Shown in pieces: positions 1-10,781 of a DNA stretch of 10,781 nucleotides. Where the stretch lies: positions 1 to 10,781 of IMG/VR virus record IMGVR_UViG_2778261567_000015. One strand, 5' to 3'. Position 1 is the stretch's first letter. Every line of letters begins with the position of its first letter. The notes beneath the pieces were generated by a model. The model saw only the letters and a list, made by a program, of their open reading frames with translations. It was not told the origin of the DNA and ran no database searches. Both the position numbers and the translations under genes were made by a program. The stretch is from a virus (Duplodnaviria > Heunggongvirae > Uroviricota > Caudoviricetes).

Positions 1-282
1 TTACCGCCGTAACCGCTCCGGCTTCTTCCAGTGGTACGTTATTTTTTCTTTCTCCCGATACAGTTCAACGCGGCGATTGTAGGCCAGCATTTCCAGAACG
101 CGGATCCGTATGTTGCGCATATCCACATCATTAAGCTGGATACCATCACGGCGCATCACCTCCGCAACAACACGCACATAATTTTCGGCGGTCACGCTGT
201 CCGGCTGCGTGGCCTGTTCGTCAGCCTGCTGGCTGATTCCGGCAACGCGACGGATTAATCGCAGTAGTTCGGCTTCTGTCAT
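1..282 (-). CDS. hypothetical protein (93 aa)
   Basis: Complete ORF: ATG at 280-282 with a GGGGG stretch just upstream on the minus strand, stop at 1-3. No family recognised. Confidence 0.45.
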   Translation of the reverse strand: MTEAELLRLIRRVAGISQQADEQATQPDSVTAENYVRVVAEVMRRDGIQLNDVDMRNIRIRVLEMLAYNRRVELYREKEKITYHWKKPERLRR

Positions 283-314
283 TGTGCCCCCATCGTTCTG
301 ATAGTCTGGTGTCG

Positions 315-530
315 TCGGGTCCTTCCTGGAATTATGGCCCGTTACGGGGCGGCGACCTCGCGGTTTTTATCTGTTTATGAAAATTTTTCTGGAAAAAGCA
401 TGTCGGCACTTCTCGAACATAACTATTTGTTTTTAAATAGATACACAATAAAAAGAAACGACACGGTAATCATCTGAAATGGCGATTTATGACGCTTTCA
501 TGTCGTTTCTCAGTTTTGTTCAATAATTGC
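315..530 (+). other. lambda-type cos site A (cosQ-like, cosN, long cosB-like region)
   Basis: 12-mer GGGCGGCGACCT at 347-358, preceded by CGGGTCCTTCC...GTTACG and followed by CGCGGTTTTTATCTGTTTATGAAAATTTTTCTGG, which closely matches my recollection of the lambda cohesive end and left-end sequence. Further lambda-like blocks follow (CATAACTATTTGTTTTTAAATAGATAC; inverted AGAAACGACA 454-463 / TGTCGTTTCT 501-510, R-site-like). Confidence 0.7.
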
Positions 531-537
531 GCTGCGG

Positions 538-1080
538 TTACTCGCCTTTCTTCTGTAGCAACTTTTCCGGTACGTCTCCGGTAGTTTCCATCAGGTAATC
601 AGCCAGTATCTTCGGGAGGTTGTCGGCAACTGTGGCACTGGCATTACAGGCTTTAGCCACTTCCTTTTTAAGTCCATCCAGCATGGCGGGGGTCATCTGT
701 GGGAATCCCCTTTGCATAGTAAGCGGGAGGCTGTCCATGATTGAAGAAATCTGGTTCGCCAGCTTTGAAAGCGCGTACAGGCAAAAACCTGTATCAATCA
801 CGTCGCCGCGTTCGCGCTCGTTTTTAAGCTCCTGCGCCTCCGCCTGGGCCGTCAGTAATCGGATTCTTACGCGTAAAAGTTCATCATCGTCGATATCGCC
901 TTTGTCGTTTGTAACCTGGTCAATTGCATTGCTTACCCGATTGTCTATCACGCTGGCAACATCGTAAAAAGCCTCGCGGCCTTTACGTTCAACGGGAGTC
1001 ACTCCCCACTTGTCGAACGCTGTCGCACTTACACGGCAGCTTTGCGCCATAGTTTTTTTGTTCATCAGGTGCGATTTCAT
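538..1080 (-). CDS. phage small terminase subunit, lambda Nu1 family (TerS-like)
   Basis: Translation aligns by eye to lambda Nu1 along most of its length (e.g. LLTAQAEAQELKNERERGDVIDTGFCLYALSKLANQISSIMDSLPLTMQRGFP versus Nu1 RLTRAQADAQELKNARDSAEVVETAFCTFVLSRIAGEIASILDGLPLSVQRRFP). Start is ambiguous: GTG 1092, ATG 1080 (GTGGGGA SD upstream) or ATG 1065 (MNKKT, matching Nu1 MEVNKKQ). Confidence 0.8.
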   Translation of the reverse strand: MKSHLMNKKTMAQSCRVSATAFDKWGVTPVERKGREAFYDVASVIDNRVSNAIDQVTNDKGDIDDDELLRVRIRLLTAQAEAQELKNERERGDVIDTGFCLYALSKLANQISSIMDSLPLTMQRGFPQMTPAMLDGLKKEVAKACNASATVADNLPKILADYLMETTGDVPEKLLQKKGE

Positions 1081-1092
1081 CAATATCCCCAC

Positions 1093-1257
1093 TTAGTTAA
1101 GGTTTCAGGTTGGTGTATTGGTTTTATATTTCCCTTTTTATTCATAAAGATAGAGCAAACAACAAAACCACCACCACCACCCTGAAAAAGCTCATAAATA
1201 GCGAAAAACCGCGAGGTCGCCGCCCCGTAACGGGTCCATATGCCGGAAAGGACCCGT
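1093..1257 (-). other. lambda-type cos site B (cosQ-like and cosN conserved, cosB diverged), oriented toward the TerS-like gene
   Basis: Reverse complement of 1201-1257 is a near-identical copy of 315-371 (ACGGGTCCTTTCCGG...GTTACGGGGCGGCGACCTCGCGGTTTTTCGC). cosN 12-mer is the complement of 1214-1225. Lambda-like sequence continues about 25 bp (CGCTATTTATGA), then becomes unique, including an (ACC)5 run at 1167-1182. Confidence 0.7.
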
Positions 1258-1280
1258 AAAAAAAGCCGGATTTCTCCGGC
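1258..1280 (-). terminator. intrinsic terminator (minus strand)
   Basis: Hairpin GCCGGA-TTTC-TCCGGC (1265-1280) followed on the minus strand by a U-run (A-run 1258-1264 on plus). Lies downstream of the decoration-protein gene. Confidence 0.5.
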
Positions 1281-1401
1281 CTGTCTCAGATAGTTTTCAG
1301 TATGCGATCGATGTCGCCGTCATCGCCTGGGTTTCTGCTTTAAATTTACTCGCCAGCGGTAGCGCCATGATGCTTTCATTCGTTGCCATCGTTCCCCCTG
1401 C

Positions 1402-1737
1402 TTATCGCGCCAGCGGCTGAACGGATACGCCAGAACCCGCAAAGGCGGCGCATTTTTTCGCGTCAGTGTCGACGCTCTCAGGCCAGTTTACGGCGGCGAT
1501 ATTAAATATCCCCGTCTTGTAACACTGTGCTGATTTCTGCTTTGACGTGTCCACAGGGTACGAGGTCAGATAAACAGCCTTGCCAGATTCCTGACCATCC
1601 CACGGCTTAAACTCGCCATTGTCCGCCAGCATCAGCGGGGTAAATTCCTGAATGACGCCAGCATCAGCGGCAAAATGTACCAGCGTCGTGGATACCTGCT
1701 GACTGCCTGCAAATAACTCAATGTATGGAGTGTTCAT
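1402..1737 (-). CDS. head decoration protein, lambda gpD-like (111 aa)
   Basis: Same length as gpD and shared blocks TPLMLAD, WDG, and GIFNIAAVNWPES...KKCAAFAGSGVSV versus gpD GTFRYEDVLWPEA...KKRTAFAGTAISIV. GGGGGA SD before the ATG at 1737. Confidence 0.75.
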   Translation of the reverse strand: MNTPYIELFAGSQQVSTTLVHFAADAGVIQEFTPLMLADNGEFKPWDGQESGKAVYLTSYPVDTSKQKSAQCYKTGIFNIAAVNWPESVDTDAKKCAAFAGSGVSVQPLAR

Positions 1738-1748
1738 AGAATCCCCCG

Positions 1749-2804
1749 TTAACCAATTTTGACGGTAACAAATTTGCGAATATCTGCTGGTACCGGCTGC
1801 GGTGCGCTGTGCGTCTGAACGTACTCAATCGCCGGATCGCCGTCTTCAATCCAGTTTTTCGGGTAGTACATGTTTTGCGTTGCACCAGTTCTTACCGCTT
1901 CCTGATCCATAATCGCGCCATAGGCCACCAGCCCTTTATTGTTGGTGTTGCCCAGGACCAGCAAATCAGGCTCAAGGAAATATTTTTCGGTACCGTCGCT
2001 GTCAGTGTATTTGCCGGAATAGACGATAAGGGCCAGATCTCCCAGATAGCCTTTAAAGCTCACCACTTCGCCCAGGTTTTTACAGGCCAGTTCGGCGGCG
2101 GATTCTGAACCACGGGAAAGATCGTACAGCTCACGGAATTTTTTAAAGCTGCGTAACGTGCGCCATACCTCAGCGCCCATAATCATGACGTTGGCGGGGC
2201 AACCTGCCTGATCTGCGTATAGTTCGATGTCATAGATTGGATCGTAAATATCTTTATCATGCTCGGACCATTTTTTACCCTTGGCCTGCTCTATGATGCA
2301 GTTTTCCGGTATTTTCCAGTCGATTTCATAGCGTTCTATGCCTTCGCCCTCAATGATGTTTTTTCCGGTCGTGACCGCATTTACAGCCAGCCATTCAACA
2401 CGCGCTTTAATGGCGTTTATCTGGCGGCGCATGTTGCCAGTAATCAGGCGCATACGGCGGTAGGTAGGGTCGTTAAGCAGTGCCGGATCTTCTCCAGCCA
2501 TGCGCATTATCGTTTTTAATGGATCGATTTCGTGCTTTGGCTTCATGTAGCCTGGTTTAATCGTGCTGGTTTCGTACCCTTTATCGCGCTGAACCTGGCT
2601 ACCCACCACAGGCGAACAAAACGCCGATATAGTGACTTCTTCAATGTCCAGGTTATCAAGCATGATGTTCTGGGTGCTGAATGTCGCCACGTTCGGGAAA
2701 AACAGTGTGGTAAACAGCGGACTGAATTTATATTCCGCAATATCCCCGCGATTCAGGTACGTGAAAAGCTGATTAGTTGTAAGTGCTGTTGCTTTTACTG
2801 TCAT
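1749..2804 (-). CDS. major capsid protein, lambda gpE family (351 aa)
   Basis: Multiple long blocks match lambda gpE from memory: KFSPLFTTLFF/KFDPLFLRLFF, KPGYMKPKHEIDP/TPGYVKPKHEVNP, DPTYRRMRLITGNMR/DPAYRRRRIIMQNMR, WSEHDKDIYDP/WSKRDKSTYDP, FKGYLGDLALIVYSGKY/YKGMYGDVAIVVYSGQY, YPKNWIEDGDPA/YPKNWVTTGDPA. GGGGGTG SD; start overlaps the upstream stop (TAATG). Confidence 0.9.
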   Translation of the reverse strand: MTVKATALTTNQLFTYLNRGDIAEYKFSPLFTTLFFPNVATFSTQNIMLDNLDIEEVTISAFCSPVVGSQVQRDKGYETSTIKPGYMKPKHEIDPLKTIMRMAGEDPALLNDPTYRRMRLITGNMRRQINAIKARVEWLAVNAVTTGKNIIEGEGIERYEIDWKIPENCIIEQAKGKKWSEHDKDIYDPIYDIELYADQAGCPANVMIMGAEVWRTLRSFKKFRELYDLSRGSESAAELACKNLGEVVSFKGYLGDLALIVYSGKYTDSDGTEKYFLEPDLLVLGNTNNKGLVAYGAIMDQEAVRTGATQNMYYPKNWIEDGDPAIEYVQTHSAPQPVPADIRKFVTVKIG

Positions 2805-3010
2805 TATTCACCCCCGTGAACCTGATTCATACCCAGCGCCGCGCGTAAATAGGCGCGTACCTGCCAGCCTGTTGACGGCTCAACCATCGCCAGCGGATCA
2901 AGTCCTGCCGCAATGCCTGCTTTTACGTTCTGCTGGTGGCGTTCCTTGAGCGCCTTCACGATGTCGGGGCTTATGTACACCGAAACACCGCCTTTTTTCT
3001 CTTCAGCCAT
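2804..3010 (-). CDS. hypothetical protein (68 aa), first gene of the morphogenesis operon
   Basis: ATG at 3008-3010 with AGAGGA SD; stop overlaps the capsid ATG (translational coupling). No family recognised. Confidence 0.5.
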   Translation of the reverse strand: MAEEKKGGVSVYISPDIVKALKERHQQNVKAGIAAGLDPLAMVEPSTGWQVRAYLRAALGMNQVHGGE

Positions 3011-3045
3011 AGTAAGAAATTCCTCTTTGACTTAAAAAATCATAA

Positions 3046-3094
3046 CTGGATGTTCATCCAGCTCTGATTATAATCAGGATTGCATTTTGTGCAA
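3046..3094 (-). promoter_or_regulatory. candidate sigma70 promoter of the morphogenesis operon with a perfect palindrome at the start of the leader
   Basis: Minus strand reads TTGCAC (complement of 3089-3094), 16 bp spacer, TATAAT (complement of 3067-3072). Perfect 7-2-7 palindrome CTGGATG-TT-CATCCAG at 3046-3061 sits between promoter and SD. Confidence 0.4.
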
Positions 3095-3174
3095 TGATGT
3101 TGAGTTGTGTTGCAAATTATGAAATGATTATCCCGATCATGTGTGCCAGCGCACCAAAAAACCTCATATGCAAA

Positions 3175-3241
3175 AGCCCGATAAGCCCCCTCTGACCTTA
3201 TCGGGCTTTTTTTGGGTACAAAAAAGCCGGATTTCTCCGGC
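3175..3241. terminator. tandem intrinsic terminators separating replication and morphogenesis modules
   Basis: Hairpin GCCCGATAAG...CTTATCGGGC (3175-3205) followed by a T-run (3206-3212). Second hairpin GCCGGA-TTTC-TCCGGC (3226-3241) with a flanking A-run, acting on the minus strand just after the stop at 3249. Confidence 0.55.
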
Positions 3242-3248
3242 TGTGTGA

Positions 3249-3521
3249 TTAGCTGTCTGGGTAATTACGCCATATTTCATCGCTTACACCATCTATACCC
3301 ATTTCAGCATAAGTGCGATCGACTGCCTTTCTCAGGTCTCCGAAGTTATCCGGCGGCTCCGGTGGCTTCTGTGCCTTCCTGGAACATTCCAGCCGTCGCA
3401 TCGTAACCTGATGCCGTTCCTTGTCTGTCTCCACCAGCTGCATGACTTCACCCCATCGCGCCGCCGCCCTCCGGTAAAATCCTTTCGCCTCGAGTTCCTC
3501 CGCTATGCGGTCATGTACCAT
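3249..3521 (-). CDS. PerC-like small transcriptional regulator (about 90 aa)
   Basis: ATG at 3519-3521 directly after the SSB stop with GGGGTGAGG SD. Motif MVHDRIAEELEAKGFYRRAAARW resembles the PerC family as I recall it. The longer track ORF (to 3641) overlaps SSB and is not favoured. Confidence 0.55.
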   Translation of the reverse strand: MVHDRIAEELEAKGFYRRAAARWGEVMQLVETDKERHQVTMRRLECSRKAQKPPEPPDNFGDLRKAVDRTYAEMGIDGVSDEIWRNYPDS

Positions 3522-3531
3522 CCTCACCCCC

Positions 3532-3942
3532 TCAGAACGGAATACCATCACCGTAAGGGTCATCGCCTCCCGCTGGTGGCTGATTACCCTGTGTGCCTGT
3601 GGTTTTGCGTCTGTTCCCGCCAGGACGTGCCGCGCGGGCACTGATTACGCTGTCTGCGATAACCTGCCAGCCCTGCCGCGTTTCGCCGTTCTGGCCTGTC
3701 CACTGGCTTACCTGCATCGTGCCGGATACGCTGGCAACATCGCCTTTTTGATGTTTAGCCAGGAAATCGGCCTGTTTGCCAAATGCGATGACCGATAACC
3801 ATAACGTCGCCTGTCCGTCCTGTGCCTGGCTGCATGGCAAAGATACCGCCATACGCGCCAGCGTCATCGGTGTGCCCTTGCTGGTCTGTTTTACCTGCGG
3901 GTCGTCCACCAGCCGCCCGTAAGCGGCTATCTGTGCCGTCAT
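3532..3942 (-). CDS. ssb: single-stranded DNA-binding protein (SSB)
   Basis: OB-fold-like N-terminal pattern (YGRLVDDPQV...WLSVIAFGKQADFLAKHQKGDVASVSGTMQVSQWTGQNGE), Gly/Pro/Gln-rich linker and acidic C-terminal tail DDPYGDGIPF, comparable to the DDDIPF tail of bacterial SSB. Confidence 0.8.
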   Translation of the reverse strand: MTAQIAAYGRLVDDPQVKQTSKGTPMTLARMAVSLPCSQAQDGQATLWLSVIAFGKQADFLAKHQKGDVASVSGTMQVSQWTGQNGETRQGWQVIADSVISARAARPGGNRRKTTGTQGNQPPAGGDDPYGDGIPF

Positions 3943-4208
3943 AATTCCACCTCTCCGGTTTTAACGTTGATGGTTGTTACCTGTTCCGCTTCGGCAATCT
4001 CCCGTTCTGTCAGCGTGGCAAAGTTTGCCGCCGCTGTGGTCATGAATGCGCTTATCAGTTCGGGATGTTCCTTCGCGTATCCTTCCCGCGTGTGGCGGTC
4101 TATCGTTCTGATTGCCACCTTTAAGGCGTGCTCTGTCATGTCTAACGCTTTATATTTTGGCGCTGTTCTGTCTCTGCGCATTTTGGTTATCTCCTCACTC
4201 ATGCTCAC
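3939..4208 (-). CDS. hypothetical protein (about 87-89 aa)
   Basis: ORF coupled to the ssb start (overlap). GTG at 4208 or ATG at 4202, with GTGAGG upstream. No family recognised. Confidence 0.45.
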   Translation of the reverse strand: MSMSEEITKMRRDRTAPKYKALDMTEHALKVAIRTIDRHTREGYAKEHPELISAFMTTAAANFATLTEREIAEAEQVTTINVKTGEVEL

Positions 4209-4395
4209 TTTTACGCCTCACTTTTTAAAGCGTCTCGCTTCGTCTCACTTGAGATTTTTGTGTTTTGTATGTGCATGTTTCATAAGTATTTTTTTACTCC
4301 TCACTTTTGAGCATGTATACAGGTGAGAAAGTGAGTAATCGTGTTAATATTTTGTAAAAACCTCACCATTACTCACTTTTGCTACTCACTTTTTA
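4193..4395. repeat. iteron-like array, candidate replication origin
   Basis: At least 7 direct copies of (C)TCACTTTT (e.g. 4203-4213, 4216-4227, 4296-4308, 4371-4380, 4384-4395) plus inverted GTGAG copies (4323-4335) in AT-rich DNA immediately 3' of the replication ATPase gene. Confidence 0.5.
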
Positions 4396-5790
4396 CAGTG
4401 GTCCTACATCATCACCATCAATGTAAATCACGGCGTCTTTTTCCAGTTTGGCTAACCATCGCCGCATATTTTTCACGTCATACCCAAGCCGTTTCATGTC
4501 ATCACGTAACAGCGGGATCGTGCACTTGTCGCCGTTCTGTGTACGTGAACGGATGCACCCCCATAGCGCGGTATGGTTTTCCGTCTTGTTGCCTGCCTCC
4601 TCGATGCGCTCCAGTTCAACGGGAGGGCGCGGCTTATCCACCACCACCAGCGACGTGATTAACTCCCCGTCAGCGTCGGTAAAAAGCTCCACCACCCGCA
4701 AATCATAGGCAGCCTCTTTGAGTTCCTCCGCGTCCTTCATTTTGGTGCATGAGATAACCAGCGCTTCGCTTCCTGCGTCCTCCCTGCGTATCCGGTATTC
4801 AGCATCCAGCGAAGCACGAAATGCACTGGAACCGCGCGCGCCTTTCGTCTCATCCTTGCCGGAATGGTGAACCACCAGCACCGTGGCCCCTGTGCGCCGT
4901 TTCAGTTCGTCACAACCACGGATAAACGCCCCCATATCACGGGAATCATTTTCATCATTGCCACCAAAGCACCGCGCCAGCGTATCCAGAATAATCATGC
5001 GTACAGGTTTACCCGTTTCCCGCTCCACCTGACGGGCAGCGATAACCAGTTCATCAACATCAAGCGGGACAGCCGGAAAGACCGGACGGTTTACCAGATA
5101 CAGATTTTTCACCTGCTCCCCGTGTACAACCTCCCACGCTCTCACGCGACGCGGTACACCAATACCGCCTTCACCAACCACATAGAGAACAGCGCCATGT
5201 GCAACCCTGCGGCCTCCCCACTGGCGGCCCGTGGAAACGTGACACGCCCACGAACCCGCAAGGAATGATTTATAGGAACCGCTTGCCCCGTATATGCTGC
5301 ATAGCGACGATGCCGGAATAATCCCCTTTACCACGTAATCTAATTGCGTGTCGTATCCGGCAGATCCAACGCTCATCGGTAGCGTGGTTTTTCGCTGGTG
5401 GCTCAGGCTTTCCCCGCGTTCCCATGTCTCCCTAAGCCGTGGAAGCTGGTCGCTCCATTCCTCCAGCAATTCGAAATTTTCAGAAAACAGGCGCGCTTCC
5501 TGGACTCCTGCGATTGCCAGTTTCGTGGCGATGGTTAACAACTGCACTTCGTCAATATTTCCGGCACGTATCACTTTCGCCCTGAACCGACCTTTATCAA
5601 CAATCTGCAAGTTATCCAGTTCGCTTAACTGATAACGCCCCAGGTAAACGGGAGGGACTGGATCGCCTGCTTTTTTGGCCTGTGCAATGATGTAGTGCTC
5701 TGCAAATGAGTGAGCATTATCACCCGCAAAAATAACCGCTTCGGTGTGTTTATCTTTCGGTAACAGTTTTACATTCGGTGCCAGTTTCAT
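4393..5790 (-). CDS. replication ATPase / helicase, RepA-DnaB-type RecA fold (465 aa)
   Basis: Walker A-like GASGSYKS, Walker B-like RMIILDT, VLVVHHSGK motif typical of RepA-like helicases; C-terminal basic domain. Start overlaps the upstream ORF stop (ATGA). Confidence 0.8.
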   Translation of the reverse strand: MKLAPNVKLLPKDKHTEAVIFAGDNAHSFAEHYIIAQAKKAGDPVPPVYLGRYQLSELDNLQIVDKGRFRAKVIRAGNIDEVQLLTIATKLAIAGVQEARLFSENFELLEEWSDQLPRLRETWERGESLSHQRKTTLPMSVGSAGYDTQLDYVVKGIIPASSLCSIYGASGSYKSFLAGSWACHVSTGRQWGGRRVAHGAVLYVVGEGGIGVPRRVRAWEVVHGEQVKNLYLVNRPVFPAVPLDVDELVIAARQVERETGKPVRMIILDTLARCFGGNDENDSRDMGAFIRGCDELKRRTGATVLVVHHSGKDETKGARGSSAFRASLDAEYRIRREDAGSEALVISCTKMKDAEELKEAAYDLRVVELFTDADGELITSLVVVDKPRPPVELERIEEAGNKTENHTALWGCIRSRTQNGDKCTIPLLRDDMKRLGYDVKNMRRWLAKLEKDAVIYIDGDDVGPL

Positions 5791-6086
5791 TTTTTACCCC
5801 TGAATCCGTTAATCATGGTTTTCAGCTTCTGGATGTTTGCCCGTGCTCTGGCGTTGCTGGTGGGCACGTTATGCGGCGCGGTCTGTACCAGAGAAAAATC
5901 ACGCCGGAACTGATAAACAGGCATCACGCAATCATATTCGTAACCTTCACGGCGGTAAGTTACGCACCGTCCCGCCACGCCCTTAATCATTACCGTGCCG
6001 CCGTACTGGTCGCGGTAAATATCACCGCGCGTAAATTTAGGGTGAGTGTTGCCACTGGCAGTTAAGCCAGAATATTTAAGTTTCAT
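5787..6086 (-). CDS. hypothetical protein (99 aa), coupled to the replication ATPase
   Basis: Complete ORF; 4-nt overlap with the downstream ATPase start. No family recognised. Confidence 0.5.
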   Translation of the reverse strand: MKLKYSGLTASGNTHPKFTRGDIYRDQYGGTVMIKGVAGRCVTYRREGYEYDCVMPVYQFRRDFSLVQTAPHNVPTSNARARANIQKLKTMINGFRGKK

Positions 6087-6091
6087 TATTT

Positions 6092-6325
6092 TTATTCTCC
6101 GGTGTGCTGTTCTTTATATCTGTCGTGCAATAGATCTATTTCTTGCAGTTCCATTATTACAGGCTCAAGAAGCGTTATTAATGCCGTGGCAATTCTTGAT
6201 TTTTGTTTGTCGCGTTCATTGTCGCCAAGTGTTTCAAGCCATATGCGCAATATTTCCAGCATGTTTTCACTGTGAGAAAGTGCAAGAAATGCGCGGTATA
6301 TTGTTTCGTGGTAAATATCACGCAT
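6092..6325 (-). CDS. hypothetical small acidic protein (77 aa)
   Basis: ORF in a tightly packed co-directional operon; start 2 nt after the upstream stop; Glu/Asp-rich. Confidence 0.5.
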   Translation of the reverse strand: MRDIYHETIYRAFLALSHSENMLEILRIWLETLGDNERDKQKSRIATALITLLEPVIMELQEIDLLHDRYKEQHTGE

Positions 6326-6326
6326 A

Positions 6327-6548
6327 TTAATCCCCGTCCGTCGTTTTTCTTAAAATAACCTCTGTCACGAAATCAGCATAATCGGCGGCGATATTCAGTA
6401 CATCAAGCCCCGTTGATTTATATTCTCTCGTGGAAAGTAAGAAAAAAGCCGCTCTAATAAGTTCTGGCATTGACGAAAGCGCATCAGCCGCATCATCAGG
6501 AACGCCGGAAAATTCCTGTTTCAGGGAATTAAAACGATCATCACGCAT
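6327..6548 (-). CDS. hypothetical small acidic protein (73 aa)
   Basis: Start chosen at ATG 6546-6548 (MRDD...), with GGGGTGGG upstream and just before the upstream gene's stop. The track's longer start at 6596 overlaps the upstream gene. Confidence 0.45.
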   Translation of the reverse strand: MRDDRFNSLKQEFSGVPDDAADALSSMPELIRAAFFLLSTREYKSTGLDVLNIAADYADFVTEVILRKTTDGD

Positions 6549-6762
6549 AACCCACCCCATTTTCACAATCAGCAACAAGAATATTTTTAGCGTCATTCAG
6601 CGACCGCGTGGCGGTGTATCGGATACATTCCAGGGCGAACTGTGTCCGGTCTTTCTGTTCTTCTCCCTGCGCAAGCTCTGCCGTGCATTCAATATCAATA
6701 AGCGCGTGCATCAGCGTAGTGAGTGCGGCGGCGGCTGCGTCCGGTGTGGTTTTATTGCACAT
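6541..6762 (-). CDS. hypothetical small acidic protein (73 aa)
   Basis: Start chosen at ATG 6760-6762 (MCNKTT...), preceded by GGAGGGG SD and overlapping the upstream stop. Confidence 0.45.
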   Translation of the reverse strand: MCNKTTPDAAAAALTTLMHALIDIECTAELAQGEEQKDRTQFALECIRYTATRSLNDAKNILVADCENGVGYA

Positions 6763-6983
6763 GTACCCCTCCGCATTTTTTTTCGTTAGAAATAAGCGTT
6801 CTTCTTTCCTGTTCATCGCTCAGGAATACGCAGACCTCACCGCTAAGGCGTTTAAGTAAGCCGATGATTGCCCCTGATTCGCTGTCGGTCATCATGCCAG
6901 GGTAATCCTCTGCCAGTGCGCAAATAACTTCGATTTGGTGGGCGCGTTCTGCTGCCTGTTGTAGCGTGATTTCCTGGCTCATA
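6752..6983 (-). CDS. hypothetical small acidic protein (76 aa)
   Basis: Start at ATG 6981-6983 overlapping the stop of the Icd-like gene (ATGA); ends at the TAA at 6752-6754. Confidence 0.5.
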
Positions 6984-7146
6984 AGCCTACCCCCTGACGA
7001 ATACGGGCGACAAAAATAAGATGTGCGTGCGGCAGCTGGGCGCGGGCTTCGCGTTCTGTTGCTGCCGTGACGGTAAAGAGTGAGGTTTGTTTTTCCTGGC
7101 ACTGCATAAAGCGCCAGACAAAGTAAGGGCGTGCGGATACAGCCAT
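6979..7146 (-). CDS. Icd-like small protein, paralog 2 (55 aa)
   Basis: ATG at 7144-7146 with AGGAGCC SD. Paralogous to 7433..7630 (FVWRF...TEREAR...FVARIRQG). Family name 'host cell division inhibitor Icd-like' is from memory. The track ORF extending to 7482 is treated as a non-functional extension. Confidence 0.5.
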   Translation of the reverse strand: MAVSARPYFVWRFMQCQEKQTSLFTVTAATEREARAQLPHAHLIFVARIRQGVGL

Positions 7147-7149
7147 GTG

Positions 7150-7432
7150 AAAGGCTCCTGTAGTGAAATTAAGGAGTCTCGCTACTACGCTGCTAAACGG
7201 GGTGGCGAGACGTAACAGGGTTAGCAGACTGGCACTACAGGAACCAGCGAGCGCAAAGGCTCCCCCGTTACGCCCCGCCATAATGCGGGTATGGGTAGGT
7301 TTACGGACACAAAAAAACCGCATATCGGAATGTAAGCGGCTGTCCGCTGTAGTATTCAGGCTGCTAAACCCGGTCGCCATGTGGGCGATGGGTGAAGCAT
7401 ACAGCCCCGTGATAATTTTTTGCAAGCGGTTT
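7150..7432 (-). other. structured spacer between the Icd-like paralogs; candidate riboregulatory leader
   Basis: Open in both strands with no convincing protein. Contains two direct GCTGCTAAAC copies (7189-7198, 7360-7369) and the complementary GGGTTAGCAGAC (7218-7229); inverted CCTGTAGTG/CACTACAGG (7158-7166 / 7233-7241) overlapping the SD of the 7146 gene; weak hairpin plus 7-nt U-run on the minus strand at 7311-7339. Confidence 0.3.
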
Positions 7433-7630
7433 TTACGCATGATGTGACCCCTGACGAATACGGGCGGCAAATACAGCAACACAACCGGACGGGCAACGGT
7501 TACGCGCTTCGCGTTCCGTCCAGGCGGTTACGTGGATTATTTGAGATTCTCCGGCACTCAGTGCCAGAAAACGCCACACAAAGGCCGTTTGTGTGTGTAC
7601 AAGGTGTGGTATATGATTTACAGCAACCAT
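7433..7630 (-). CDS. Icd-like small protein, paralog 1 (65 aa)
   Basis: ATG at 7628-7630 with AGGAGCC SD; motif FVWRFLAL...TAWTEREARNR...FAARIRQG. First gene downstream of the minus-strand promoter at 7732-7761. Confidence 0.55.
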   Translation of the reverse strand: MVAVNHIPHLVHTQTAFVWRFLALSAGESQIIHVTAWTEREARNRCPSGCVAVFAARIRQGSHHA

Positions 7631-7700
7631 AACGGCTCCTAGTTTACGTTGTTGGTTAGAAGCCCCGTATGTGTTCCAGCACTGCGGGGTTTCGTCTTTT
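7585..7700. repeat. copy 1 of a ~115-bp duplicated unit (5' leader plus first codons of the Icd-like gene)
   Basis: Shares with 8330-8447 the blocks CGTTTGTGTGTGTA, CCATAA, TGGTTAGAAGCCC and a GC hairpin followed by a T-run (7663-7700), in the same order and spacing. Confidence 0.6.
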
Positions 7701-7719
7701 CTGTACCTTGCATCAACAA

Positions 7720-7802
7720 GGTGTAAGACACAATGTAAAATAACGGTGTCTTACACGTCAACCCTTCAAAATATTTTTTTTTCGTGTATATTGTCTTACA
7801 CC
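7720..7802. promoter_or_regulatory. divergent promoter pair with inverted-repeat operator
   Basis: Inverted repeat GGTGTAAGACAC (7720-7731) / GGTGTCTTACAC (7745-7756) and a third half-site TGTCTTACACC (7792-7802). Minus-strand promoter TTGACG (complement of 7756-7761) and TACATT (complement of 7732-7737). Plus-strand promoter TTCAAA (7765-7770), 16 bp, TATATT (7787-7792). Confidence 0.45.
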
Positions 7803-7822
7803 AAAAACATGAGGGGTTAAAC

Positions 7823-8002
7823 ATGGCAACGGGTCCAAAGAATGCAAAATCACAATCTGTAACTGCACGTATTGCCCATGAAATTATTGAAGGCATGGAG
7901 AACGTGAAAGAAGAAGGTGAAAGCACGGGGCAGTTTATAAACGCAGCCATGCGCGGCGAAATCAAACGCCGCCAGCGTCGCAAGGCCAAAGAATCAGAAT
8001 AA
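7823..8002 (+). CDS. ribbon-helix-helix (CopG/Arc/MetJ-type) DNA-binding protein (59 aa)
   Basis: ATG at 7823 with GAGGGG SD. Predicted beta-strand QSVTARI followed by two helices (AHEIIEGMENVKEEG, STGQFINAAMRGEI) and a basic tail. The track's GTG start at 7784 lies inside the promoter and is not favoured. Confidence 0.55.
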   Translation: MATGPKNAKSQSVTARIAHEIIEGMENVKEEGESTGQFINAAMRGEIKRRQRRKAKESE

Positions 8003-8059
8003 TCACTATCAGCGCCGTGGTGTGAGGTACTACGGCGCATTGCTTTACAGGGCAGTACC

Positions 8060-8287
8060 ATGACCAACAACACACTATCACCAATACAAGACACGCAAAC
8101 GCAAGATGATGAAATCATCCGGCAAAGGCAGTCAGAAGCCTGCGCCAGACTTGAGGAAGAACTAACCAGAACAAAAATACCACCACCAGCGCCGCGCTTA
8201 GTGCCACCAGAAAAATTTGCCCTTGAAGATTTTGTCGATAAATACCCACGGCGGCTTAAATCCGGCAAAAACCGACCGCCAGGATGA
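8060..8287 (+). CDS. hypothetical protein (75 aa), acidic N-terminus, Pro-rich centre, basic C-terminus
   Basis: ORF downstream of the RHH gene on the same strand. Weak SD (AGGG 12 nt upstream). Followed by hairpin GAAACGGA-TTAT-TCCGTTTC (8308-8327). No family recognised. Confidence 0.4.
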   Translation: MTNNTLSPIQDTQTQDDEIIRQRQSEACARLEEELTRTKIPPPAPRLVPPEKFALEDFVDKYPRRLKSGKNRPPG

Positions 8288-8329
8288 GTGCACAAAACCG
8301 AACTCTGAAACGGATTATTCCGTTTCCGG

Positions 8330-8447
8330 GGCGTTTGTGTGTGTATAAAGAGTAAGCTATGCTCTTTTATAGCCATAATCTTTACCTCAATTAATGGTTT
8401 GGTTAGAAGCCCGTTGGTGTTCATAGCGCCAGCGGGCTTTGCTTTTT
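8330..8447. repeat. copy 2 of the duplicated leader unit, carrying a remnant Icd-like start
   Basis: Same block order as 7585-7700. Minus-strand ATG at 8374-8376 with SD GAGGTA encodes MAIKEHSLLFIHTQT (compare MVAVNHIPHLVHTQTA) and then loses the Icd-like sequence. GC hairpin 8409-8437 plus T-run 8438-8447. Confidence 0.55.
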
Positions 8448-8506
8448 GTGTTGATTGTGTGTAATGTGTCACTACACATAAATACATTACATGAGGTGTA
8501 ATTAAC

Positions 8507-8686
8507 GTGTCAACACACAAAAACGAAAGGCGTGGTAATCCTCCGTTCCAGTTCCGTTTAGATCCTGACTTACGGGAAAAGATGGAAAAGGCACAACAAC
8601 ATGACGGCGATGATTCTCTTGCTGCCTGGATAAAGCGAATAATCCGCAAAGAATTACAGCAACGCGGCATAGAACCCAAAGGGTAA
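8507..8686 (+). CDS. Arc/Mnt-type ribbon-helix-helix repressor (59 aa, GTG start)
   Basis: GTG at 8507 with GAGGTG SD 8 nt upstream; stop TAA at 8684-8686. PPFQFRLDPDLREKMEKAQQ...SLAAWIKRIIRKEL resembles P22 Arc (PQFNLRWPREVLDLVRKVAEE) and Mnt (PHFNFRMPMEVREKLKFRAE). Absent from the ORF track because it is under 60 aa. Confidence 0.55.
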   Translation: MSTHKNERRGNPPFQFRLDPDLREKMEKAQQHDGDDSLAAWIKRIIRKELQQRGIEPKG

Positions 8687-8836
8687 TTACATTGCCCACC
8701 AGCCTGATAGCGGCTATCATTCCCGTGCTTATGTTTGGGATCACATACACATAAGGCGCAGCAGGTTAATTGTTCACAAGGGCGTTCCGGCAACGGGGCG
8801 CTTTTTGTTATGTTCATCGTGTTATGCCTCACACCA

Positions 8837-9043
8837 TTACGCAGCCGTTCCGCGTGCTTCCTGCTCACGTTCTTTCATCCATGCGATTACGTCTTCCTCA
8901 TACCATCCGCGACGGCGTAAACCAACGCGAAAACCCTGCGGAAATTCTCCGGCGTTGATCATGCTTTGAAGCGTGCTGTCTGCCTTGATGTAGATAAGTT
9001 TTTTTACTTCCTGGCGAAAGATGACTTTTTTGATTGCTTCCAT
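8837..9043 (-). CDS. alpA: AlpA-family phage transcriptional regulator (68 aa)
   Basis: ADSTLQSMINAGEFPQGFRVGLRRRGWYEEDVIAWMKERE fits the AlpA/Vis MerR-like HTH pattern (...GxFPKPxKLGxRxxxWxxxEVxxW). Position next to the integrase is typical. Confidence 0.75.
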   Translation of the reverse strand: MEAIKKVIFRQEVKKLIYIKADSTLQSMINAGEFPQGFRVGLRRRGWYEEDVIAWMKEREQEARGTAA

Positions 9044-9060
9044 CGTGATTTACCTTGTGA

Positions 9061-9151
9061 ATCCGGTGTATTCCGGTGACAAATACGGTAAATCATCGGA
9101 TACGGGTAAAAACAGTTCCCACCGTTTTTAAACTGTTAGAACCGTTTTTTA
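9061..9151. promoter_or_regulatory. repeat-rich region upstream of alpA (candidate operator sites)
   Basis: Direct repeats TCCGGTG (9062-9068, 9072-9078), TACGG(G)TAAA (9084-9092, 9101-9110) and ACCGTTTTT (9121-9129, 9141-9149), the last pair forming an inverted arrangement with GGTAAAAAC. Confidence 0.35.
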
Positions 9152-9176
9152 TGTTGGTGATTTGAAAGGGATTTAT

Positions 9177-9198
9177 AAAAAAAGCGGCATTTCTGCCG
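9177..9198 (-). terminator. intrinsic terminator (minus strand)
   Basis: Hairpin GCGGCA-TTTC-TGCCGC (9183-9198) followed on the minus strand by U6 (A-run 9177-9182 on plus), directly after the stop at 9211. Confidence 0.5.
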
Positions 9199-9210
9199 CT
9201 TTGAGGATTG

Positions 9211-9462
9211 TTACCGCCATTTTTTTGGCCTGCCTCCGGTCTTCATGGTTGCCGGACGAACTACCCTGTCGATACTTTCAGCCATATTCCTGGATGCCCC
9301 ACGGGATACCAGGAAATCTACTACCTGTTTTTTTGATGGGGCCGTCGTTCTGTCCTCCGGATCGTAGGTTGACCAAAATTCATGCTGAACCATCAGGGCC
9401 AGTTGCAGCCCGTCGCAATTGCATCTGAAATTTTTTTGCATCTTAACGGTTTCATGTTTCAC
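9211..9462 (-). CDS. hypothetical protein (up to 83 aa), doubtful
   Basis: ORF between int and alpA ending just before a terminator, but GTG start with weak SD and no recognisable family. Confidence 0.3.
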   Translation of the reverse strand: MKHETVKMQKNFRCNCDGLQLALMVQHEFWSTYDPEDRTTAPSKKQVVDFLVSRGASRNMAESIDRVVRPATMKTGGRPKKWR

Positions 9463-9539
9463 GGCCTTGTCGTTAAATTTGATGCAATTATACGACGGTT
9501 TTACATGGTTTTCGTAGTTTTTACTGGTTTTCTGTACAG

Positions 9540-10781
9540 CTAAACGGCTCGGATACCCCTTTTACCACTGGCGAGGGTTACGCCCGTCGCCGCAGCCTCG
9601 ACAAATTCGCCCCACCAGCGCATAAGCACCACGCGTTTTTCTATGTAGTTGCTCCGGTTGTATGCCCGTCTCACTTCGTTAGTGTCGACGTGGGCAAGTG
9701 CGGCCTCGATTACGTCCGGCTCGAATCCTTCCTCGTTCGCTGCTGTACTGAATATGGCGCGTAATCCATGAGACACCAGCACGCCAGCGAACCCCATGCG
9801 TCGTAATGCTGCGTTTGCTGTCTGGCTGTTCATTGGCTGCCGTGGGTCTTTCAGACTCGGGAAAACATAATCGCGGTGGTGGCTGATTGGTTTCATGGCC
9901 TCCAGCACCGCCATAGCCTGACCGGAAAGTGGGATAACGTGATCCCTGCGCATCTTCATGCGTCCGGCGGGTATCGTCCAGCGTTGCGCGTCCAGGTCGA
10001 TTTCATCCTACCGCGTTGATGACGCTTCGGCGGGACGGGTTACGGTCAGTAACTGCCATTCAATCAGTAATCTGGTCTGCCGTTCTGTTGCCGATACTGA
10101 TAAAGCCTGCATAAGCTCCGGCAACTGTTCGGGGCGGATTGTTGGCATATGTTTTTTTACAGGGGAGGGGAACGCCTTACGCACATTCATAGCCGGATTG
10201 GCATCAATCAGCCCACTGTTGGCGGCGTAATCCATTACCTCATTAACGCGCTGTAAAACCCGTTTGAGTGTTTCCAGGTTGCCGCGCTCCTTGATGGGGG
10301 TAAGCACCTCAACGAACCTGCGAGCGGTCAGGGTGTCTATTGGGGTGTTGCCGATGAACGGGAATACATATTTATCCAGCGATCGCCAGATGTCTTTAAT
10401 CGTGTTGGGGGCCAGATTCTGGCTGATTTTCACCTGGTACCATGCCGCCGCCACATTTTCGAACGTGTTCCCTTGTCTTCGGGCCTCTGCCTCTCGTTTT
10501 TTCTTCTCATGGCCCTGCGGGTCAGTTCCGGCACTGATTAACGCTCTGTACTCGCTACGGCGTTTTCTGGCATCAGCCAGGGAAACATCATCAAGCGATC
10601 CAAAACTCAGCAATATTCTTTTTTTGTCCGATGGCCGGTAGTAGGAAAATCGCCAGAGTTTTGATCCGGACGGTTTGACCAGGAGAAAAAGCCCTCCGCC
10701 GTCCTGTAGGGTGTATTCCTTTTCCGCTGGTCTGGCTGCTTTGATCTGCACCGTGGTTAATGGGGGTGTTTTTCTCGCCAT
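9540..10781 (-). pseudogene. int: P4-type tyrosine integrase interrupted by a single in-frame TAG
   Basis: N-terminal ORF 10011-10781 (GGGLFLLVKPSGSKLWRFSYY...) and C-terminal ORF 9540-9959 (HGLRAIF, RRAYNRSNY) are in the same frame, separated only by TAG (complement of 10008-10010). Read-through gives ...SSTR*DEIDLDAQRWTIPAGRMK..., where related integrases usually have Trp, consistent with TGG to TAG. Start codon is at the window edge. Confidence 0.75.

Follow-up and report, generated by a model that had tools for sequence, protein, structure and literature searches.

A ribbon-helix-helix gene cassette lying antisense within an eta-like open reading frame probably belongs to the immunity region of a P4-like phage satellite

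The DNA stretch considered here, referred to as the window, comprises 10,781 nucleotides (positions 1 to 10,781 of the IMG/VR virus record IMGVR_UViG_2778261567_000015) and is a phage-satellite island of the Gram-negative phage-inducible chromosomal island (PICI) or P4-like kind. The backbone genes of this island are all encoded on the minus strand. Against them, between the alpA gene and the first of two Icd-like genes, run three small plus-strand genes: RHH1, which encodes a ribbon-helix-helix (RHH) protein, p75, which encodes a protein of 75 aa, and RHH2, located between this pair and alpA (Table 1). An initial annotation of the sequence had described RHH1 and p75 as a two-gene cargo provided with its own promoter and opposed to the flanking genes. 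The two open reading frames (ORFs) with their Shine-Dalgarno (SD) sequences, a sigma-70-like consensus match directly upstream of RHH1 and the opposite orientation of the alpA, Icd-like and helicase genes were all found as described. The view of the pair as cargo inserted at a variable hotspot was not upheld, since the RHH gene, its putative operators and the predicted divergent promoters are conserved at this position in 31 loci.

The RHH1 protein matched the NCBIfam profile NF041551 (YlcI/YnfO) with 64.8 bits (cutoff 30, E=5.2e-18) over positions 1-42 of 42, and RefSeq gives the YlcI/YnfO name to its orthologs. The predicted model has an RHH fold, in which an N-terminal strand is followed by two helices, as in the Arc/MetJ/CopG superfamily. 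Searches of the RHH1 sequence against PDB chains and PADLOC gave chance-level matches only (E=0.028 and 12 bits in PADLOC), and tblastn against a collection of 50,697 phage records gave no match. The possibility that the ORF is a spurious one was rejected on account of the curated family match, the RHH fold and the operator covariation described below. In the 31 loci, which represent at least 12 genera, including Escherichia, Xenorhabdus, Yersinia, Kosakonia, Pectobacterium, Hafnia and Raoultella, the RHH gene occupies the interval between alpA and the Icd-like gene wherever these flanks could be identified. With this orientation and location it is a conserved component of the island family throughout the Enterobacterales. 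The loci come from six E. coli genomes, 24 genomes of other species, which were obtained in a search with a three-sequence alignment, and E. coli O157:H7 TB21-1, whose island at tqsA/pntB (L037) has the same design at its positions 4200-5050.

Putative operators are arranged around two predicted back-to-back promoters. The 11-bp palindrome GTGTAAGACAC is present in three copies in the window, which form the operators O1, O2 and O3, and nowhere else in it, while 0.10 copies would be expected and none of 200 shuffled sequences reached three. The offsets of the operators from the RHH start codon (approximately -103, -77 and -31) are conserved; operator-like repeats are located at these same offsets, three in number, in most of the 31 loci, and four loci have two or four. 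Both promoters are predicted at the E. coli offsets in the Xenorhabdus locus (L008), where the minus-strand one (TTGACA-18-TATTAT) agrees with the consensus at 11 of 12 positions, and the minus-strand promoter is predicted at the same offset in Kosakonia (L030). Moreover, the central bases of the operators change together with the predicted beta-strand residues of the RHH protein, which gives eight classes across the 31 loci (Table 2). Such covariation is what an immunity repressor that exists in several specificities, at least eight in number, would be expected to show. Each of the eight beta-strand variants is paired with one operator core, which provides strong indirect support for the predicted sequence-specific binding of the palindrome by the RHH1 beta-strand. 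Because the operators overlap both promoters and each operator class matches one beta-strand variant, RHH1 is most likely the island's operator-specific immunity repressor, acting on the promoter of the replication operon, and its own autoregulator. The latter role had already been proposed in the initial annotation, and it is very likely in view of the operator copy placed right after the -10 element of the RHH1 promoter.

Table 1. Location of genes, putative regulatory sites and RNA elements in the window
Feature	Position	Strand	Description
RHH1	7823..8002	+	59 aa, YlcI/YnfO-family ribbon-helix-helix protein; SD GAGGGG 7811-7816
p75	8060..8287	+	75 aa; SD CAGGG 8048-8052; C-terminal motif KFALEDFVDKYPRRLKSGKNRPPG
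Operator O1 (putative)	7720..7731		GGTGTAAGACAC; starts one base past the -10 of the minus-strand promoter
Operator O2 (putative)	7746..7756		GTGTCTTACAC; within the minus-strand promoter spacer, abutting its -35
Operator O3 (putative)	7792..7802		TGTCTTACACC; begins at the final base of the RHH1 promoter -10; putative autoregulation site
RHH1-p75 operon promoter (predicted)	7765..7792	+	sigma-70-like consensus match TTCAAA-16-TATATT
icd/replication operon promoter (predicted)	7732..7761	-	consensus match TTGACG-18-TACATT; inside the long minus-strand ORF; putative counterpart of P4 PLE
eta-like ORF	7639..8868	-	393 codons from ATG 8817 or 410 from GTG 8868, including stop
Hairpin GCGCCGT..ACGGCGC with AUUGCUUUAC tail	8012..8048	+	conserved; separates RHH1 from p75; candidate attenuator; includes the SD context of p75
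RHH1-p75 operon terminator (predicted, intrinsic)	8406-8440 (8406..8450 when delimited more widely)	+	consensus match; strong, plus strand only, no minus-strand U-tract; within leader copy B
Terminator before alpA (predicted)	8778..8815	+	would shield alpA from plus-strand transcription; kept in other genera
Leader copy A	7575..7715		5' end and leader of Icd-like gene 1; hairpin terminator-like on the plus strand only
Leader copy B	8318..8450		carries an in-frame icd 5' end remnant on the minus strand (MAIKEHSLLFIHTQT)
RHH2 (module 2)	8507..8686	+	Arc-like RHH protein; phrog_228 (Arc-like repressor), 3.4e-6
alpA	8837..9043	-	Pfam Phage_AlpA weak; phrog_66 and phrog_2790; activator, P4 vis homolog
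Icd-like gene 1	7433..7630	-	NF033153, 64.8 bits; first gene of the operon proposed to be repressed
Icd-like gene 2	6979..7104	-	paralog of Icd-like gene 1
C4/CI-type immunity RNA	7198-7285	-	Rfam RF01695, 72.2 bits (gathering score 45)
a1/b1-like target of C4 RNA	7353-7402	-	RF03163, 36.2 bits, below the gathering score of 46.7

Table 2. Predicted beta-strand residues of the RHH protein and the operator cores that accompany them
Beta-strand	Operator core	Occurrence
SVTA / SITV	GTGTAAGACAC	E. coli, Xenorhabdus
MTTV	GTGTATTTCAC	at least 10 genera
ALKA	GTGTGGCCCAC	E. coli, Pseudocitrobacter, Enterobacter
TVAA / TIAA	GTGTTGAACAC	E. coli, Kosakonia
KLQA	GGTGGACTCC	Enterobacter pulveris (L015)
QLNA	GTGGTATTCAC	E. 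coli (L006)
KTSV	GTGACGGACAC	Limnobaculum (L007)
KKLE	GGTGTCAGCCAC	E. coli O157:H7 (L037), three copies

The whole plus-strand cassette region, with all three genes and the intergenic DNA, lies antisense within one long ORF of the minus strand. A single minus-strand frame is free of stop codons from 8874 to 7642 (411 codons), whereas the other two minus-strand frames contain 23 and 31 stops. The ATG of this ORF is preceded by an SD sequence (GAGG, 8827-8830) and is situated 20 nt past the alpA stop codon (8839-8837). An SD and an ATG no more than about 20 nt away from the alpA stop are a conserved feature, and in L014, L022, L024 and L030 a GTGAGG or TAAGGGG sequence with ATG is found at most about 10 nt from it. 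At the other end the frame is closed by TAG (7641..7639), which is placed inside the SD of Icd-like gene 1, 9 nt ahead of the icd ATG and in another frame. Approximately half of the open frame faces plus-strand non-coding DNA; in this part alone 11.5 stops were expected and none was seen (0 of 20,000 simulations), and the plus-strand genes therefore do not account for the openness of the frame. The frame is kept in about 30 related loci. In each of the 24 loci of other genera the RHH gene is covered by an open stretch of 148-414 codons. Summed over the loci, these stretches amount to 9808 codons in which no stop occurs, while the other two frames contain 607 and 638 stops. The frame is continuous with the Icd-like domain in roughly half of the 24; an in-frame Icd-like or Phage_ASH end was found in L011-L014, L019, L022-L024, L026, L027, L029, L030, L034, L035 and P4.

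A conserved protein product of the long minus-strand ORF was considered and rejected: the non-Icd part has no family match, substitutions outside the part antisense to the RHH gene show no three-base periodicity (13/12/12, 15/20/17 and 31/25/31 by codon position), and frameshifting indels, of lengths other than 3n, are compensated. The pattern of changes indicates that the frame is held open while the encoded protein is not conserved, with no constraint at the protein level. The plus-strand genes are nevertheless tied to it in phase. In the window and 29 related loci, the third codon positions of 39 of 41 plus-strand genes coincide with those of the antisense frame, and RHH1, p75 and RHH2 share one plus-strand frame because all three are phase-locked in this way. 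Readthrough of the single TAA that separates RHH1 from p75 in this common frame was also considered; it was judged a consequence of the phase lock, with no evidence of a fusion protein. By analogy with phage P4, the long ORF would correspond to the eta ORF, and the minus-strand promoter at 7761-7732 would be the counterpart of its internal promoter PLE.

The content of this frame varies between loci. In Raoultella (L023, 3692-3955) and Kosakonia (L030, 3695-3934) the RHH gene is followed by an unrelated gene of 79-87 aa, whose start overlaps the RHH stop; although these genes differ in phase from the others with respect to the antisense frame, that frame is open across them. The open minus-strand frame reaches 619 codons in L031 (2334-4190) and 515 codons in L035 (2088-3632), and in the latter it spans several p75-type gene remnants and hairpins, which suggests that cassettes were repeatedly gained and decayed inside the eta-like ORF. 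A consequence for annotation is that pipelines treat the region inconsistently, calling the small plus-strand genes in some records and pieces of the long minus-strand ORF in others; the PGAP annotation of L037, for instance, has a partial minus-strand 'hypothetical protein' in one part of the frame.

The second gene of the cassette, p75, is much more narrowly distributed. In the predicted model, the protein forms a single long helix at residues 8-38, modelled with confidence, followed by a Pro-rich linker and a second, short helix. In a set of 5.8 billion proteins its relatives formed 17 clusters, all from E. coli, and a profile search run exhaustively over 1.84 billion cluster representatives gave 19 matches, mostly proteins of 55-94 aa. 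All of the relatives that were examined occupy the same slot of satellite regulatory regions. In the mosaic variants, which have 74-78 aa, the start and stop are retained together with the C-terminal (K/R)FALE(D/A)F(V/L)xKYPRRLKxxKxRPPG motif, and the SD and ATG behind the conserved hairpin are invariant. The slot behind the hairpin is variable and may be filled by p75 types, small2 types (the small protein of a second regulatory module), unrelated small genes (L023, L030) or nothing. The module-2 small protein scored 16-17 bits with the p75 profile and matched p75 in BLASTP at E=0.009, and a 57-aa small protein of O157:H7 (L037) carries FALEQFLKEY and looks like a single bridging sequence. 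An FxLExF..KY motif common, weakly, to the module-2 small protein and the O157:H7 protein weakly suggests that these and p75 form a loose superfamily in the variable slot behind the repressor gene. On this pattern of conservation, p75 appears to be a real, narrowly distributed coding gene and an optional accessory of the repressor operon.

Other explanations of the second ORF have to be considered, one of which is that it has no function and has been conserved as a by-product of recent recombination and of constraints acting on the eta-like frame opposite to it. The region is indeed recombinogenic and mosaic, PGAP leaves the ORF unannotated in L002 and L003, and since the third codon positions of both strands coincide, periodicity cannot separate the strands. 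However, protein-level constraint is absent from the eta-like frame wherever it could be measured, while the p75 frame is conserved better than the antisense frame, with fewer and more conservative amino acid changes, in the 14 non-identical of 15 pairs (in total 105 vs 133 differences and BLOSUM scores of 1336 vs 1078). The start, SD, stop and length are, moreover, kept down to about 49% identity with the window protein, and also in the still more remote members that the profile search brought up. A non-functional ORF is thus regarded as very unlikely. Even less probable, to a degree that makes it barely credible, is a type II toxin-antitoxin system in which RHH1 would be the antitoxin and autoregulator and p75 an island-stabilising toxin, as had been put forward among the candidates in the initial annotation. 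Systems with RHH antitoxins (CopA_SO, MazE, TacA and ParD types) resemble this locus in the fold of the first gene product, the two-gene layout and autoregulation, the latter being predicted here. They differ from it in that the second gene here has no toxin fold or family, is optional and is uncoupled from the first. The 75-aa protein belongs to no recognised family, as had been stated, with no match in Pfam, NCBIfam or PHROGs and none to a toxin or defence family. Its predicted structure when modelled alone, which had been asked for in the initial annotation, is a single long helix with a short motif and not a toxin fold. RHH1, only 59 aa long, has no C-terminal toxin-binding extension. The two genes are not obligate partners either: p75 relatives were absent from all 24 RHH-bearing loci of other genera and exist without an RHH gene upstream in L031 and L035, and an identical p75 protein is found behind four different RHH specificity classes. 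RHH1 and p75 are also not coupled, because they are 57 nt apart with a terminator-like hairpin between them.

Two further proposals concern the role that a functional p75 might play. It may be an accessory of the lysogenic-conversion or defence type, aimed at incoming phages, at satellites that compete with the island or at its helper, and independent of the RHH switch. The position of p75 in the predicted operon of the maintenance repressor is the classic one for exclusion genes, such as rexAB of phage lambda, which are co-transcribed with the maintenance repressor; the variable content of the slot and the lack of covariation between p75 and the RHH class are also in line with this role. It is nonetheless unlikely, given that p75 matched none of the 5027 PADLOC models, which also speaks against the defence module suggested initially, and had no homolog by tblastn in the 50,697 phage records. 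The protein is very small and has no enzymatic or sensor features, and the constancy of the C-terminal motif in all variants suggests one constant partner, not an arms-race target. Alternatively, p75 may be part of the switch itself, as a co-repressor or anti-repressor adaptor of RHH1, a neutraliser of a leaky Icd/Kil-type division inhibitor or a tuner of read-through acting on Rho or RNA polymerase. In favour of such a role, the place of p75 in the repressor operon is fixed, behind a conserved hairpin that resembles an attenuator, its family is confined to one slot of satellite regulatory regions, and the conserved C-terminal motif and basic tail resemble a peptide-type interaction motif; the adjoining operon encodes Icd-like proteins, and Kil of P4 is toxic (PMC10111431). 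On the other hand, most genera whose islands share this combination of RHH gene, eta-like ORF and Icd have no p75, and the switch therefore operates in its absence; nor is there covariation between the C-terminal tail of the RHH protein and the type of small protein. A part in the switch is accordingly held to be doubtful, and a switch-modulating or partner-binding role is ranked slightly above an exclusion role expressed in lysogeny. In summary, the RHH autoregulator proposed in the initial annotation has stood up, and the cargo, toxin-antitoxin and defence parts of its reading have not.

The leader copies A and B, which had been interpreted as flanks of an insertion, are real but diverged duplicates that align at about 65% and have an exact 14-mer, TTGGTTAGAAGCCC, in common. 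Many E. coli islands hold two regulatory modules in tandem, and the two copies are the product of tandem repetition of a whole regulatory module instead of insertion flanks; copy B is the remnant of the icd leader and start codon of the second module, retained in frame. The second module has its own repressor-like gene, RHH2, which scored 17.6 bits with the YlcI/YnfO profile, below the cutoff, matched no PADLOC model and has an inverted repeat of its own, TGTAATGTGT/ATACATTACA, at 8460-8491. In L004, the module-2 variant (MSTPLEKRSPPYQMRL) bears three GGTAATTACC palindromes instead of the RHH2-type repeat, and therefore the operator covariation also holds for repressors of the module-2 type. 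Module 2 of the window lacks the hairpin and a 67-aa small gene owing to a deletion of exactly 240 nt (window 8686-8700 vs L004 3040-3290), in which the RHH2 stop region was joined to the final codons of the small gene and the antisense frame stayed open. All hairpins of the region are terminator-like on the plus strand only and have no U-tracts on the minus strand. The one between RHH1 and p75 is kept in 10 modules with differing RHH and small-protein types, with changes that are G-U-compatible on the plus strand.

The C4 RNA and its a1/b1-like target are located between the two Icd-like ORFs, downstream of the minus-strand promoter, and by analogy the RNA would be a lock of the P1 immI or P4-like type placed downstream of the RHH-controlled promoter. 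An E-value scan with Rfam found no known RNA in 7765-8290, the only hits being the C4 RNA and the a1b1 target further downstream. AlpA is an activator that also turns on its own expression, and the induction of Gram-negative PICIs proceeds via AlpA activation and not via a phage anti-repressor (PMC6092414). The other minus-strand genes encode an integrase, a DUF4222 protein, a RepA-like helicase, SSB and PerC, together with lambda-type capsid protein E, decoration protein D and the Nu1 small terminase. The integrase gene (10781..9540) contains an in-frame TGA at 10008-10010 (…AEASSTR*DEIDLD…), which splits it into ORFs of 257 aa and 139 aa, and the island may have lost the ability to excise itself. 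Related islands are common in E. coli; the segment 7640-8520 was matched in 406 of 5426 complete genomes.

Considering all these features, the region 7640-8870 is probably the regulatory (immunity) region of a P4-like or Gram-negative PICI-type satellite, in which RHH1 is the operator-binding repressor, the cassette lies antisense within the eta-like ORF and p75 is an accessory. In the quiescent island, RHH1 dimers would occupy the three GTGTAAGACAC-type palindromes. Binding at O1 and O2 would hold down the minus-strand promoter of icd, the C4 RNA and the replication operon, binding at O3, at the -10/+1 region of the RHH1 promoter, would lead to autoregulation, and the C4 RNA would serve as a second lock. 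The p75 protein would be made from the repressor operon, presumably in this quiescent state. Upon activation of alpA by a helper phage, transcription from the alpA promoter would yield an RNA that is translated through the eta-like ORF; protected from Rho in this way, this RNA would escape termination and deliver icd and the replication genes despite the repressed internal promoter. Such read-through would proceed head-on through the RHH genes and may lower repressor synthesis by transcriptional interference (convergent transcription).

Several points weigh against this interpretation. The promoters and terminators are consensus matches, and RHH binding, repression and read-through are predictions made from sequence. 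With a C4-type RNA present, the RHH protein may be one of two locks or mainly a tuner of C4 production, and a bound RHH protein could equally block read-through as be bypassed by it. A single continuous product of the open frame is not universal, as the frame switches near the module junction in the E. coli loci L002, L003 and L006. The p75 family members of L031 and L035, moreover, have no obvious promoter and may be decaying.

The proposed role makes RHH1 a concrete candidate for the repressor that is said to be missing in Gram-negative PICIs (PMC6092414). The YlcI/YnfO (DUF3950) family would gain a candidate role as well, with at least eight operator specificities over the promoter of a replication operon. 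It may even be, although this is a tentative extension that we would not yet favour, that RHH proteins of the YlcI/YnfO type are the missing repressors of Gram-negative PICI/P4-like satellites, with their cassettes antisense in an eta-like ORF that is translated only against termination, a convergent-transcription switch that silences the repressor and p75-type proteins that tune it. The arrangement is unusual in that the repressor cassette lies inside, and in phase with, an antisense ORF selected only to stay open. It would extend the principle, known from P4, of eta translation preventing termination, and could explain how AlpA overrides immunity.

Among known systems, the immI region of phage P22 has the small RHH repressors Mnt and Arc at the divergent promoters Pant and Pmnt, and immI-type loci of P1 and N15 contain c4 RNA, icd and ant. 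The locus described here resembles them in its predicted small RHH repressors, in short palindromic putative operators over predicted back-to-back divergent promoters and in a controlled operon with an icd-type gene and an antisense immunity RNA. It differs from them in having no antirepressor gene and in the nesting of the repressor gene antisense in the eta-like ORF; in addition, RHH1 has no detectable sequence relationship with Arc and Mnt, and only RHH2 matches an Arc-like PHROG. RHH1 is a clear member of the YlcI/YnfO family of E. coli prophage proteins, to which no function is assigned in the sources searched, and the role of operator-specific repressor in satellites proposed here would be new for the family. 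The Stl/Rpr repressors of Staphylococcus aureus pathogenicity islands (SaPIs) and other Gram-positive PICIs differ in fold, as Stl is not known to be an RHH protein, and in the absence of the nested antisense arrangement seen here. They are similar in that the repressor gene is divergent from the replication operon and keeps the island quiescent (PMC6092414), which is the role proposed for RHH1.

The closest parallel is phage P4, whose eta gene, of the Phage_ASH type, contains the internal constitutive promoter PLE and is translationally coupled to the alpA homolog, its translation preventing termination (PMC10111431). In both systems a long ORF with a translational link, predicted here, to an alpA homolog follows this homolog and extends up to or into an Icd-like domain; in the P4 sequence the open frame ends in such a domain. 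Both have a promoter, a predicted one in the present locus, within the long ORF, and further downstream a C4/CI-type RNA together with its target sites. That translation allows the transcript to escape termination is described for P4 (PMC10111431) and proposed here by analogy. The differences concern mainly what the open frame contains and how its internal promoter is governed. The P4 eta frame has 217 codons and no antisense gene, all plus-strand frames being full of stops, whereas the corresponding spacer here has 393-410 codons with one to two complete RHH cassettes antisense to it. In this window, moreover, the frame is not fused to the Icd-like domain, as the icd ATG lies 9 nt beyond its stop. 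PLE is constitutive, and the account of PMC10111431 mentions no protein that represses it; the counterpart here would be under the control of RHH1. What is new in the present locus in comparison with P4 is the presence of complete RHH repressor cassettes nested antisense within the eta-like ORF.

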